From the NCBI GenBank assembly GCA_044342365.1, contig JBIIPY010000002.1, forward strand, positions 34,711 through 98,710: a stretch of 64,000 nt of DNA, written 5' to 3'. The position numbers and the translations under genes were made by a program. This document shows, piece after piece, positions 36,390-58,218 of the stretch; positions within the stretch are counted from its first letter, which is position 1; each line of letters opens with the position of its first letter. The notes below the pieces were generated by a model, which was not told where the DNA came from, searched no databases, and saw nothing but the letters and a program-made list of their open reading frames with translations. The stretch is from Ferruginibacter sp. (GTDB lineage Bacteria > Bacteroidota > Bacteroidia > Chitinophagales > Chitinophagaceae).

Positions 36390-36469
36390 GTTACATCCCC
36401 CCTATTTCATATAGCAATTAAATTTCCTATCTATTAAAAATTGTGCTTTTCTCAATAGCCCGCTTGCCC

Positions 36470-36477
36470 TATCTTTG
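36470..36477 (+). promoter_or_regulatory. -7 box for sucD
   Basis: TATCTTTG followed by C, ~30 bp upstream of the ATG at 36509. Confidence 0.7.
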
Positions 36478-36508
36478 CGCCACAAATTTTTCACTTATAA
36501 TAACCGAT

Positions 36509-37384
36509 ATGGCTGTTTTAGTTAATAAAGATTCTAAAGTAATTGTACAAGGTTTTACCGGTACAGAGGGTACTTTCCACGCTACCCAAATGATAGAATA
36601 TGGAACCAACGTAGTAGGTGGTGTTACACCAGGCAAGGGTGGTACCAGTCATCTCGACAAACCAGTGTTCAACACCGTGGAAGATGCGGTTAAAACTACA
36701 GCGGCCAATGTGAGTATCATTTTTGTACCCCCTTCGTTTGCAGCCGATGCCATTTTAGAGGCGGCAGAAGCAGGAATTGCTTTGGTGATTTGCATTACAG
36801 AAGGCATTCCGGTTTCAGACATGGTAAAAGTGAAAAATTATTTGAAAGACAGCAGCACACGTTTAATTGGACCAAACTGTCCGGGTGTAATTACTGCAGA
36901 TGAGTGCAAAGTGGGTATCATGCCAGGCTTTATTTTCAAAAAAGGGCGCATTGGTATCGTATCAAAATCTGGAACACTTACCTACGAAGCCGCCGACCAG
37001 GTTGCAAAAGCAGGGTTGGGTATTTCAACTGCCATCGGTATTGGTGGAGATCCCATCATCGGCACTACTACCAAAGAAGCGGTGGAGTTGTTTATGAATG
37101 ATGATGAAACAGATGCCATTGTTATGATAGGTGAAATTGGTGGTGGTATGGAAGCAGAAGCAGCCCAATACATCAAAAGTACTGGCAACAAAAAACCGGT
37201 CGTTGGTTTCATCGCTGGCCAAACAGCGCCTCCGGGTAGGAGAATGGGCCATGCTGGCGCCATCGTAGGTGGAGCCGATGATACTGCAGAAGCCAAAATG
37301 AAAATCATGGGCGAATGTGGTATTCATGTAGTAGCTAGCCCTGCCGACATTGGTAAAACAATGGCTGAAGTAATGAGCAAATAA
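36509..37384 (+). CDS. sucD: Succinyl-CoA ligase alpha subunit
   Basis: [42 protein letters not shown] and RMGHAGAI (phospho-His). Start set at MAVLV. Confidence 0.98.
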
Positions 37385-37472: not shown

Positions 37473-37534
37473 GTATCCGGCTTTTCGCTGCAAGTCCTCG
37501 CTGCGCTGCGGGCTTTCCGCTACAATCCGGGCTA
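37473..37534 (-). ncRNA. Flavo-1-like repeated structured RNA/REP-like element
   Basis: Minus strand reads TAGCCCGGATTGTAGCGGAAAGCCCGCAGCGCAGCGAGGACTTGCAGCGAAAAGCCGG. It is a GC-rich island with two AGCG(G/A)AAAGCC units. Resemblance to the Bacteroidota Flavo-1 motif is recalled, not computed. Confidence 0.5.
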
Positions 37535-37555
37535 TGCTCAACATTTTTTTCTCTT

Positions 37556-37697
37556 ATACCGATTGGACAAACAAAATAGTCCAATATCGGCTGTCGCCTC
37601 ATTGTACTATTTGTTTGATACCATCGGCATTTACTCCCGAAAGCATTCGGAATAAGATTTATAAAATATTGGCATATTATATAAATCACATTGGTAT
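37556..37697 (-). mobile_element. 142-bp MITE-like repeat, copy 1
   Basis: Reverse complement matches 50715-50856 at 136/142 positions (hand count); ends ATACC...GGTAT; non-coding. Confidence 0.7.
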
Positions 37698-37850
37698 TAT
37701 CAACCTACTTGCTATCTCTTAATGACTATTGAAGCCATGCATTCTCTGTATAATGGCCACGCAATTATACAGTGAAGGCCCGAGCAAAAGCTCGAACCCC
37801 CTAAAGTATAGCCATTAAAAAAACTACGTATTCATCATAGCACTCTTGCA

Positions 37851-37946
37851 CTATCTTCCTGTTCTCACCGGAATAGGAATCGGTTGTAAAGGCTTGCCAA
37901 AAATGGTTGCAATCAACTCTTCTAAAAAACTATTTAACTGTCTCAT
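37851..37946 (-). CDS. Putative 31-aa small protein MRQLNSFLEELIATIFGKPLQPIPIPVRTGR
   Basis: Manual translation ATG(37946) to TAG; amphipathic helix plus a P-I-P-I-P-V-R tail; below the ORF-track cutoff. Confidence 0.5.
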   Translation of the reverse strand: MRQLNSFLEELIATIFGKPLQPIPIPVRTGR

Positions 37947-46221: not shown

Positions 46222-46557
46222 ATGAATAAATATAAAATAATATTAACCGGAGTATTCCTTTCTGCTACTATTATTTTTTCATCCTGTGAAGATGAAAAGA
46301 ACGAAGATCTTACCCAAACCGTTAATAAAAACGGATCTGTTGAAACATCTGTAACCGTGGAGCATTTAGACAGCGTGAATGACATACTGGTGACCAAGCA
46401 TGCCGTTTGGCACAAGGGTTCTATCAATAAAACTTTTGAACACAGGGATACTGTGCCTGCCCTTGGATCGGAAAAGACAGCTATAAAAGACGATTTTGGT
46501 AACGATAAAAATGTAGAAGCAAAAAAAGAATACGAGATTTTTATTACGGTGAAGTAG
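46222..46557 (+). CDS. Small hypothetical lipoprotein
   Basis: Lipobox FSSC followed by acidic EDEKNED; the mature part appears beta-rich. Confidence 0.8.
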   Translation: MNKYKIILTGVFLSATIIFSSCEDEKNEDLTQTVNKNGSVETSVTVEHLDSVNDILVTKHAVWHKGSINKTFEHRDTVPALGSEKTAIKDDFGNDKNVEAKKEYEIFITVK

Positions 46558-46603
46558 GAGAAAGCTGATTGGTGAAATCTTCAAAGAGCTACGGAAATTA
46601 GAG

Positions 46604-47007
46604 GTTGAAAAACGTTGAACGGCTTGAACTTCTTGAACCTTGAACCTCTTGAACGTTGAACCTCTTGAAAGTTGAACCTCTTGAACGTTGAACCTCTTGA
46701 ACGTTGAACCTCTTGAACGTTGAACTTCTTGAACGTTGAACCTCTTGAACGTTGAACCTCTTGAACGTTGAACCTCTTGAACGTTGAACTTCTTGAACGT
46801 TGAACCTCTTGAACGTTGAACCTCTTGAACGTTGAACCTCTTGAACGTTGAACCTCTTGAACGTTGAACCTCTTGAACGTTGAACTTCTTGAACGTTGAA
46901 CCTCTTGAACGTTGAACTTCTTGAACGTTGAACTTCTTGAACGTTGAACTTCTTGAACGTTGAACCTCTTGAACGTTGAACCCCTTGAACGTTGAACCCC
47001 TTAAACT
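46604..47007 (+). repeat. 16-bp tandem repeat array (TTGAAC[C/T]TC TTGAACG), ~23 regular units at 46640-47007 with a degenerate left edge
   Basis: Counted by hand. Units 6, 10, 16, 18, 19 and 20 have TTC, units 22-23 have CCC, unit 2 has TTGAAAG. No unique spacers. Confidence 0.97.
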
Positions 47008-47036
47008 TTTGAAACATCTTAAACATTAAAAGACGA

Positions 47037-47381
47037 ATGAAAAAAACAAAAACAATACAACTCATTTTAATTACTGCAGCCCTAGCATCCTGTGCCGAAA
47101 AAAAGAAAGAGCCCGAGTGGGGCAGCGGCAATAAAACTTATGTGAGGGGCGATAGTACCGCACCTTATACCCGCACTCACCACGGCGGCGGAGGCATGCT
47201 GGGTGTGGCGCTATGGTATTATGCCTTCAGGCCCTATGGAGGTTTTAATAATGGAACTTATTCACGGGCTGGATATTATTCCAATGCAATACCACACAAT
47301 GCCAACATAGGAGCCAACGGATTAAAAGGAAAAGCAGTGAGGGGCGGATTTGGAAGAACAGGGGTTAGAGCAGGCAGCTAA
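47037..47381 (+). CDS. Small Gly/Tyr/Arg-rich lipoprotein, YgiB/YjfM-like (RGGFG tail)
   Basis: Lipobox LASC, Gly/Tyr-rich body and C-terminal AVRGGFGRTGVRAGS; directly upstream of a GSP-synthase-like gene, as in E. coli ygiB-ygiC. Confidence 0.75.
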   Translation: MKKTKTIQLILITAALASCAEKKKEPEWGSGNKTYVRGDSTAPYTRTHHGGGGMLGVALWYYAFRPYGGFNNGTYSRAGYYSNAIPHNANIGANGLKGKAVRGGFGRTGVRAGS

Positions 47382-48811: not shown

Positions 48812-50638
48812 ATGTTCAGAACGCACACTTGCGGACAATTAAGGATTTCCGATATTAATAGCAATACCACACTAGCGGGTTGGGTACAAACAGTACGTAA
48901 ATTTGGCAGCATCACTTTTGTAGATCTAAGAGACCGTTACGGCATTACCCAACTGCTTTTTTCTGAATCGCTCAATGAACAATTGGAAGCCAATCCACTG
49001 GGCCGTGAGTTTGTTTTACAAGCCACGGGTACCGTAAACGAACGCAGCAACAAAAACGCCAACATCCCCACAGGTGATATAGAAATAGTGGTTACTTCTT
49101 TTAAGATCCTCAACAAATCTGCCGTACCGCCTTTTAAAATTGAAGACGATACAGATGGTGGTGATGACCTGAGAATGAAATACCGTTTCATGGATCTAAG
49201 AAGAAACGCAGTAAAAAAGAATTTAGAATTGCGCTACGCCGTTGGCCGCAGCACCAGAAATTATTTGCATGAGAACCAGTTCATGGATATTGAAACCCCC
49301 TTCCTCATCAAATCTACCCCGGAAGGTGCCAGAGATTTTGTAGTGCCCAGCCGCATGAACCCAGGCCAGTTTTACGCCTTGCCTCAAAGTCCGCAAACAT
49401 TTAAACAACTGCTGATGGTAAGCGGCTACGATCGTTACTATCAAATTGTAAAATGTTTCAGAGACGAAGATCTCCGTGCCGACAGGCAGCCAGAGTTTAC
49501 CCAGATAGATTGTGAAATGGCCTTTGTAGAACAAGAAGATATTCTACAGATGTTTGAAGGATTGGTAAAAAGAATTTTTAAAGATGTAAAAAACATCGAT
49601 TACACCGAACAAGTAGAACGCATGACATGGCAACAAGCCATGTGGACCTATGGCAACGACAAGCCAGACATTCGGTTTGAAATGAAGTTGACCAACCTGA
49701 AATTTCCTGCTCATACTTTTCCAGAACAGGCCGATATATCATCACTTATTACTGGTGTAGATTTTAAAGTATTTGACGAAGCAGAAACGATAATTGCCAT
49801 TGCAGCACCAGGTTGCAGCGAGTACAGTCGCAAACAAACCGACGAACTTACGGAATGGGTTAAACGCCCGCAAGTGGGTATGAAGGGATTGGTATTTGTA
49901 AAATGTAACGCTGATGGTACTTTTAAAAGCAGCGTAGACAAGTTTTACAATGAAGACAAATTAAATGCGATTACTGCGGCTACCAACGCTAAAGCGGGCG
50001 ACTTACTATTAATATTGGCAGGGCCTGAAGAAAGAACCCGCAAAGCTGCCAGCGACCTGCGCATGTACATGGGTACTACACTCGGATTGCGCAAGGCAGC
50101 TGAATTTAAATTGTTGTGGGTATTGGATTTCCCGCTGTTTGAGTATGCCGAAGACAACAACCGTTGGGTGGCTAGGCATCATCCGTTTACAAGCCCCAAA
50201 CCCTCCGACATTGATACGATGATCAACAACAATCCAGTGATAGAAAATGCTGCTGAATATTTAAAACATCCATATGCCAGCATCAAAGCCAATGCTTACG
50301 ATATGGTATTGAATGGCAACGAAATTGGTGGTGGTTCTATCCGGATCTTCCAAAGGGAGTTACAAGAAAAAATGTTTGCAGCTTTGGGCATGGATGCAGC
50401 AGAGCAACAACACAAGTTTGGATTCCTACTGGGCGCTTTCGAATACGGCGCACCCCCACACGGTGGTATAGCCTTTGGTTTCGACAGACTTTGTTCTATT
50501 CTGGGTGGAAGCGAAAGTATCCGAGACTTTATTGCCTTCCCAAAAAACAACAGTGGCAGAGATGTGATGATAGATGCTCCGAGTGAAATAGACCAACAAC
50601 AATTTGATGAGTTACAGATAAAACTGAACCTGAAATAA
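48812..50638 (+). CDS. aspS: Aspartate--tRNA ligase
   Basis: [60 protein letters not shown] and [14 protein letters not shown]. Confidence 0.99.
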
Positions 50639-50714
50639 TTCATCATCATTACTTTTAAAAGAATGCTAGCAATAGTGGTCTTTTTTATACCCTTTACGAT
50701 CCCTTTAAATTGTT

Positions 50715-50856
50715 ATACCAATGTGATTTATATAATATGCCAATATTTTATAGATGTTATCCCGAATGCTTTCGGGAGTAAATGCCGATGGTATCAAACA
50801 AATAGTACAATGAGGCGATAGCCGATATTGGACTATATTGTTTGTTCAATCGGTAT
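50715..50856 (+). mobile_element. 142-bp MITE-like repeat, copy 2
   Basis: Inverted near-identical copy of 37556-37697; internal hairpin TCCCGAA-TGCT-TTCGGGA; palindromic 3' half. Confidence 0.7.
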
Positions 50857-50886
50857 TAAATTGAAGTTGATACCATAAACCCTTTT

Positions 50887-58034: not shown

Positions 58035-58067
58035 CAACAGTTCTTTAAACCTCGGGGAACCGAGATC

Positions 58068-58181
58068 ACTTATCAAGAAAGGCAGAGGGTAATGGCCCTG
58101 TGAAGCCTTGACAACCTATCCCGACCATCGTTGGGAAAAGGTGCCAACTCCATCCTTGCAGCAATGCTTGGAAAGATAAGT
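58068..58181 (+). promoter_or_regulatory. SAM-I (S-box) riboswitch aptamer
   Basis: CTTATCAAGAAAGGCAGAGGG..TGGCCC.GTGAAGCC..GACAACC...AAGGTGCCAA.TCC...GAAAGATAAG. P1 pairs CTTATC/GATAAG. It lies upstream of Met biosynthesis genes. Confidence 0.93.
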
Positions 58182-58218
58182 CAGATAATCGCCACGATAT
58201 TTTTTACTCAAAATATTC

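Follow-up and report, generated by a model that had tools for sequence, protein, structure and literature searches.

A non-coding MITE with 3-bp TWA target-site duplications in a Ferruginibacter genome, from a family scattered over Bacteroidota

The inverted repeat studied here is a MITE of a family without prior description that is scattered over Bacteroidota. In the explanation that fits best, which we consider highly probable, it is a non-coding MITE that would be moved in trans by a DDE-type transposase. The preliminary description had proposed an uncharacterised non-autonomous element, and this proposal was borne out by 121 full and 43 partial copies, concordant TWA duplications, alleles with an empty site and the lack of a matching Rfam family.

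Copies, boundaries and target-site duplications

The window, that is, the whole stretch of 64,000 nt that was analysed, corresponds to C144:34711-98710 of a draft genome (G000) of 2.96 Mb in 174 contigs with 40% G+C. A repeat search of the window identified two inverted arms, 37556-37697 and 50715-50856, each 142 nt long, 96% complementary and spaced by 13,017 nt. Two copies cannot match in this way by chance, and the six mismatches between them are three private departures of each copy from the genome-wide consensus. The first account of a 142-bp element occurring as an inverted pair 13 kb apart holds within the window but not genome-wide, where about 160 copies are present: the BLASTN search of the genome that had been proposed as a copy-number check returned 164 non-overlapping loci, 121 of them full-length and 43 partial. 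Chance and assembly artefact were ruled out by this copy number and by independent metagenome contigs. Among the 43 partial copies, 21 lie exactly at contig ends, indicating that the element is a major source of assembly breaks. The mean identity of the genome copies to their consensus is 97.8%, with few shared variants and star-like differences, as expected from a recent burst.

To define the boundaries, 120 copies were aligned with 30-nt flanks. Similarity ends abruptly at the boundaries, the base before ATACC being the same as the base after GGTAT, and the element proper is 140 nt, TACCGATTGG...CATTGGTA. Two size classes, 142 nt and 129 nt as first delimited, dominate the genome. With 140 nt, the element falls among short, non-coding MITEs (about 50-800 bp) and cannot accommodate a transposase; the ORFs that overlap it extend out into the flanks. 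The imperfect TIRs that had been noticed at the termini were confirmed: in this genome the ends ATACCGATTGG... and ...CCAATGTGAT enclose two palindromic modules, and ATACCGATTGG pairs with ATACCAATGTG at 8 of 11 positions. In a relative from the same genus, ATACCGATTATAC and ATACCAATTGTAA pair at 10 of 13 positions, and overall the TIRs are short and imperfect (about 7-13 nt). The many dispersed copies are accompanied by insertion polymorphism, with empty copy-1 alleles in the metagenome runs X2 and X5, as described below.

The trinucleotides flanking the 140-nt element are identical in 93 of the 120 copies (TTA/TTA 48, TAA/TAA 43, TGA/TGA 2), a fixed-length target-site duplication (TSD) of 3 bp, TWA. 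The middle base of TWA agrees in 91 of the 110 TWA/TWA pairs (binomial p = 2e-12), and the 19 disagreements exceed the expectation from 2-4% divergence alone. None of the internal sites tested was associated with TTA versus TAA, showing that the middle base is copied from the target rather than carried by the element and excluding subfamilies with a TWA of their own. The 3-bp model was the only one to fit when TA and other duplication lengths were considered. A TA duplication of the IS630/Tc1-mariner type is not what the 142-nt unit displays, its flanks being TT/TA in 48 copies, TA/AA in 43 and TA/TA in only 11.

Both window copies carry perfect TTA duplications. In copy 1, TTA at 37554-37556 and at 37697-37699 bracket the 140-nt element TACCGATTGG...CACATTGGTA (37557-37696, plus strand), a member of the 142-nt subfamily with three private differences from the consensus. 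Copy 2 (50716-50855) lies in the opposite orientation, on the minus strand, between TTA, as read on the plus strand, at 50713-50715 and TTA at 50856-50858. The initial impression of no clean TSD was thus mistaken, the 3-bp duplication overlapping the outermost base that had been assigned to the element.

The length of the duplication also bears on the class of the element. Correia elements of Neisseria and RUP elements of Streptococcus pneumoniae duplicate TA and have been linked to IS630-type or related transposases. They resemble the present element in being non-autonomous and highly structured, with a length of 100-150 nt, tens to hundreds of copies per genome and mainly intergenic positions beside genes. 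However, the duplication here is the 3-bp TWA, the TA model fails for half of the copies and there is no sequence similarity, so that the comparison with IS630-mobilised RUP and Correia elements made at the outset is a misfit. A TWA duplication is that of IS5 / PIF-Harbinger (Tourist-like) MITEs, and it is kept in other lineages of the family. The Tourist-like and IS5-family MITEs (ISL2, IS1031 and IS427 groups) share with this element the 3-bp TWA (TTA/TAA) duplication, the small, non-coding form, the high copy number, the AT-rich, mainly intergenic sites and the presumed mobilisation in trans.

Fold of the element and candidate mobilising enzymes

Folded as single-stranded DNA, the element had an MFE of -27.2 kcal/mol, compared with -10.7 +/- 2.6 for shuffled sequences (z = -6.35), in agreement with the internal hairpin reported for the copies at first reading. 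The 142-nt form folds into three hairpins, at its positions 4-72 (HP1), 80-97 (a GC mini-hairpin) and 101-132 (HP2). In copy 1, HP1, the long 5' hairpin with the conserved half-sites ATAGTCCAAT and ATTGTACTAT and a small apical GC stem, occupies 37559-37627; the optional GC-rich mini-hairpin, with the consensus CCCGAAAGCATTCGGG, lies at 37635-37652; and the 3' hairpin HP2, with the apex ATATTGGCATAT, spans 37656-37687, all on the plus strand. The 129-nt subfamily has CACTGT in place of the mini-hairpin, and this form folds into two hairpins, with the HP2 stem reaching the 3' terminus. Eight family members from different genomes were compared: six had z-scores between -5.8 and -8.5, and the remaining two (about -2.2 and -2.35) had MFE folds that do not show both hairpins.

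In 17 diverse members with 76% mean column identity, the HP1 pair cells were paired in 89.3% of cases, versus 28-47% when the partners were slid. Eleven HP1 pairs had changes on both sides, and the observed covariation score was reached by none of 500 shuffles. The check for covariation among copies, suggested from the outset, therefore came out in favour of the hairpin, with compensatory changes keeping HP1 paired across divergent relatives. The RNAalifold consensus on the MAFFT alignment missed HP2 because the alignment shifts, and the per-sequence folds show it.

The most conserved letters are internal, namely ATATAGTCCAAT and ATTGTACTATT in HP1 and TTGGACTAT (or a variant) at the HP2 apex. 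The motif ATTGGACTAT, or close variants of it, occurs in three copies per element. In one lineage all three motifs of this type were changed jointly to ATTGGTCTAT / ATTGTTCTAT in a single event, which hints that the ATTGGACTAT motif may be a putative protein-binding site. Other lineages carry analogous, unrelated GC hairpins at the position of the mini-hairpin.

In the proposed mechanism, a DDE-type transposase supplied in trans would bind the ends and the repeated motif, cut TWA with a 3-nt stagger and paste the element in, duplicating 3 bp. The enzyme type to which the TWA duplication would point most is IS5 / PIF-Harbinger-like. Such an enzyme would not be encoded in this assembly, and may lie on unbinned DNA or have been lost. 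Its autonomous partner element would be expected to be bounded by TWA, to start with TACCGATTGG and to end with a CCAATGTGGTA-like sequence. Effects on neighbouring genes, such as read-through RNA hairpins or altered promoter spacing, would be by-products.

We searched for this partner among the transposases of the MITE carriers. Neither the ends nor the core motif occurs outside the MITE copies in this genome, whose transposase complement comprises only one gene of the IS30 family, one of the IS1634 family and a decayed DDE fragment. The IS30-family gene (G000:C37:3032-4024) is intact and single-copy and encodes 330 aa (NF033563, 226 bits); its inverted ends, GTTCAA[C/G]T[A/G]ATAAGTGCAACA, are unlike those of the MITE. 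The IS1634-family gene (G000:C128:9932-11494; 520 aa, NF033559, 374 bits) stops 129 nt before the contig end. IS1634-like genes of about 460-520 aa are present in several MITE carriers and have diverged with their hosts, with 65% DNA identity to the gene of the MAG JAPLEF01. Both the IS30 and the IS1634 genes were rejected as partners, their ends differing from the MITE.

Other candidates were likewise discarded. A 34-nt perfect palindrome, TACCGATTGGACTAAATTGTTTGTCCAATCGGTA, with TTA/TTA flanks (G000:C120:5034-5078), is a minimal derivative built from two left ends; the DDE_Tnp_1 pseudogene that it adjoins, the decayed DDE fragment mentioned above, belongs to an unrelated element. Ordinary genes were the neighbours of the solo ends at C108:25257 and C49:20783, and likewise of the truncated copies on C148, C131 and C94. 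On G079:C8, from a near-complete carrier, two end motifs in +/- orientation and separated by 1,063 bp proved to be a chance match in a large ordinary ORF together with a normal MITE. An insertion sequence with DDE_Tnp_4 in a carrier of the same genus has the ends TAGACCTCTTGCATTA, which do not match.

DDE_Tnp_4 (PF13359), the domain of IS5/Harbinger type that a TWA duplication would lead one to expect, was not found in this genome and was absent from 16 of 20 other carriers, and DDE_Tnp_1 and rve were absent from many MITE-rich genomes, one of which is 100% complete in 20 contigs. The PF01609 matches were IS1634-like or other elements with different ends, so that the shared ends expected of an IS5/Harbinger element were lacking. 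In MITE-rich genomes, MITEs lay within about 1.5 kb of 4 of 13 DDE_Tnp_1 loci, never as the ends of the locus. Overall, no related autonomous element with the same ends was found in this genome or near DDE or Y1 matches in about 30 carrier genomes, mostly MAGs. The search for a transposase with matching TIRs that had been called for was thus unsuccessful, and of the outcomes named in advance as speaking against a mobile element, this is the only one that applies. MAGs often lose multi-copy insertion sequences, and most of the genomes examined are MAGs, which makes the absence of a transposase weak, suggestive evidence. In two respects the element is also unlike the IS5/Harbinger group. The usual IS5 and Harbinger terminal repeats begin with GG or GA according to ISfinder descriptions, and the MITE ends, TACCGATTGG..., do not resemble typical ends of either; in addition, an element that combines DDE_Tnp_4 or DDE_Tnp_1 with matching ends was found neither in this genome nor in most carriers.

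The mover might also be of a type other than the recognised IS5/Harbinger one, although we think this unlikely. An unannotated transposase, or a chromosomal enzyme widespread in Bacteroidota such as a ubiquitous Y1 HUH protein or another domesticated recombinase, would then read the thrice-repeated ATTGGACTAT on hairpin or cruciform DNA and still yield 3-bp TWA duplications. Such an enzyme would explain complete carriers without a DDE element with matching ends.

A distinctly improbable reading is that a HUH (Y1) tyrosine transposase mobilises the hairpin element in single-stranded form, in a REPIN/RAYT- or PATE-like manner, with TWA as the target or cleavage motif. Like REP/REPIN-RAYT sequences and IS200/IS605-derived PATEs, the element is a hairpin extragenic repeat with two inverted modules, here two adjacent imperfect palindromes with strong single-strand folds, in hosts with Y1 genes. 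An empty site with one TWA is likewise predicted by this reading, which is also favoured by the lack of a DDE transposase with matching ends in any host examined. However, REP/REPIN-RAYT sequences and PATEs make no TSD and cluster around the RAYT gene, whereas the data here support a true duplication: the left and right middle bases are concordant without an internal correlate, and an element-borne right TWA would not track the target. Y1_Tnp genes were present in 16/16 genomes tested, three of them in this genome, but equally in relatives without the MITE, and the three Y1 genes have neither the element nor its motifs within 1.2 kb. The insertions also show no one-sided target motif and are found in either orientation.

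Genomic context and variation among lake strains

We mapped the copies relative to genes with a crude ORF map that assigns 87% of the genome to ORFs; 114 copies could be placed. Intergenic copies accounted for 109 of the 114, with 44 in convergent, 55 in tandem and 10 in divergent contexts, against 292, 1343 and 337 background regions, respectively; insertions thus favour the space between convergent genes. In tandem contexts the orientation relative to the flanking genes is mixed (22 same, 33 opposite). This context bias is the usual footprint of selection against promoter or gene disruption.

The two window copies had been placed just downstream of sucD and aspS, and the domain matches agree. 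The ORF at 36443-37384 encodes succinyl-CoA ligase alpha (sucD; CoA_binding and Ligase_CoA domains), with copy 1 located 172 nt 3' of its stop codon, and the ORF at 48812-50638 encodes AspRS (aspS; tRNA_anti-codon, tRNA-synt_2 and GAD domains), with copy 2 located 77 nt 3' of its stop codon and 47 nt 5' of the next start codon. The gap between sucD and copy 1 contains a hairpin followed by a T-run, as read from the sequence, and a Flavo-1 RNA motif (RF01705; 37470-37537, minus strand; 46.1 bits against a gathering score of 42), which adjoins the MITE. A link between Flavo-1 and the MITE was dismissed, as the approximately four related Flavo-1-like copies found in the genome by BLAST are not generally close to MITEs. 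Elsewhere in the window, a SAM riboswitch (RF00162, 73 bits) lies at 58067-58182 on the plus strand, and 46544-47103 is a tandem array of about 24 or more 16-bp units.

A second, GC-rich, REP-like hairpin repeat, e.g. CGCCGTTGGTCAAAGCCCAGACGGCG, occurs at about 2830-3130 of C95 and in the flanks of MITEs on C125, C94 and C64. On C95 it forms tandem units beside a weak Y1_Tnp-like ORF, and on C125 two inverted copies bracket one MITE.

We judge it very unlikely that the element serves chiefly as a structured RNA or a regulatory module, for instance as an sRNA gene, a terminator or a stabiliser of 3'-UTRs, that has multiplied in the genome and whose sequence is maintained by selection for the RNA fold. 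The location of most copies downstream of genes and the stable hairpins with compensatory changes would suit such a module, but pairing between transposase-binding sites predicts the palindromic covariation equally. Lake metatranscriptome contigs cover the 5' hairpin HP1 at low depth; this signal is weak, is limited to contigs and would fit read-through. TSDs together with presence/absence alleles denote insertion at the DNA level. The copy number among close relatives is erratic, from 0 to more than 100, with 21 of the 24 sampled genomes of the same genus lacking a match at E <= 0.001. The mixed orientation in tandem contexts and the absence of a T-run after the GC hairpin also argue against an RNA module. 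In the Rfam scan, the best matches over the element had E >= 0.09, far under the gathering scores, and the scan of the whole window returned only the Flavo-1 motif and the SAM riboswitch, both outside the element. The repeated ncRNA offered earlier as an alternative is thus not needed to explain the data.

In the lake metatranscriptome run X21, a 191-nt contig is identical to window positions 37744-37934, a region 5' of the second A2M gene that contains a small ORF.

Copy 1 is an insertion polymorphism among lake strains. Contigs covering both flanks showed that it is absent from related strains in the lake metagenome runs X2 (a contig of 2,220 nt) and X5 (230 nt), in which window positions 37549/37555 are joined to 37697/37700; the check for empty sites proposed at the outset thus succeeded with alleles from public lake metagenomes. 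The empty site reads ...TTTTTTCTC-TTA-TCAACC... in X2, with TTT replacing TTA in X5, and these strains diverge from the window by a few per cent. In contrast to copy 1, copy 2 is present in X1, X3 and X5, where flanking contigs enter the element, and hence in every strain readable there; the X2 contig flanking the copy 2 site ends before the element. Since the X5 strain has copy 2 without copy 1, copy 2 is the older and copy 1 the later insertion. The X2 empty-site contig is colinear with the assembly across copy 1, which likewise indicates that the assembly order is ancestral and that copy 1 arrived after copy 2.

The idea that the window pair serves as a recombination substrate inverting the 13-kb A2M-ligase-aspS segment is extremely unlikely: homologous recombination between inverted copies that are 96% identical and 13 kb apart is possible in principle, but the X2 contig gave no sign of it, no strand-switching joints were reported (a weak test, as contigs are interrupted within the repeat), a length of 142 nt is short for a substrate and, with about 160 equivalent copies in the genome, the window pair does not stand out.

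Summed over the MITE (window 37534-37725 and 50708-50877, runs X1-X6), contig depth was thousands-fold that of the single-copy flanks, for example about 30,000 in X1 compared with about 8.5 at the flanks. Such a depth is far beyond 160 copies in one organism, indicating that the element or its close relatives are abundant in other members of the lake community.

Distribution of the family, related systems and significance

In a sample of 24 genomes of the same genus, 21 had no match at E <= 0.001; one genome had 13 copies, which fall into both size classes and are about 78% identical, another a single copy at 82% identity and a third a weak partial match only (E = 3.3e-5). An exact-pattern scan of 185,579 species genomes found at least 79 loci, and the matches listed include MAGs labelled Chitinophagaceae/Chitinophagales, Sphingobacteriales, Flavobacteriaceae, Bacteroidales, Paludibacter and others. 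The relatives in these listed MAGs agree in their ends, in the TWA duplications and in the plan of two hairpins; the stems are specific to each lineage, and GC hairpins are optional. With a covariance model trained on 17 members, the family was recognised in 28 of the 301 genomes of the order, representing 13 of 129 genera and at least ten families, and many genomes had at least 11 scored matches; in a phylum-wide sample, only 3 of 400 other genomes matched. End motifs number about 75 per strand in one near-complete carrier, where a control pattern gave 11-17.

Many copies in the MAG JAPLEF01, which comes from Lake Pavin, show 96.7-100% identity to the consensus of this genome, although the genes shared by the two genomes are only 74-81% identical. 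Judged from these identities, this difference points to a probable recent horizontal transfer of an active MITE lineage. Five JAPLEF01 contigs (L047, L058, L077, L099 and L110) hold 187-240-nt variants in which the HP1 module is tandemly duplicated and joined via TTA, which suggests that the module is capable of being copied or inserted independently.

A search for DNA transferred together with the MITE between the two genomes found only one other highly similar stretch, of 4.9 kb and containing neither rRNA nor a transposase. This stretch (G000:C60:11960-16875) is 92.6% identical to JAPLEF010000107 and encodes one secreted protein of 1488 aa, the C-terminal region of which resembles, by eye, a type IX secretion sorting domain; the stretch may have been transferred horizontally in an event of its own. 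As for carriage by phages or plasmids, BLAST found no match in 72,556 plasmids and 50,697 phage records, and the core pattern was not matched in IMG/VR.

MITEs described in Bacteroidota (PMC9769881, PMC4596501, PMC11602168) share the phylum and the element class with this family. The MITE of Cardinium cOegib is restricted to its lineage, and its IS982 parent has been identified (PMC9769881), and those of Porphyromonas gingivalis are different elements (PMC4596501). An automated census predicted 81,380 Bacteroidota MITEs (cMITEs) without describing families (PMC11602168), and may well include members of the TWA family among its predictions. In the literature searched, which included the text of the census, we found no description of the TWA family, its duplication or its architecture.

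For annotation, one element accounts for about 160 intergenic repeats, roughly 0.8% of the genome and at least 21 contig breaks. It also accounts for look-alike 'structured' intergenic sequences in many Bacteroidota MAGs, which could otherwise be mistaken for small-RNA genes. The element would gain considerably in interest if a complete genome turned out to lack a DDE partner. The family is a tractable case of recent MITE bursts and cross-species transfer in freshwater Bacteroidota, and since presence/absence alleles are visible in public lake metagenomes, single insertions can be used as strain markers.
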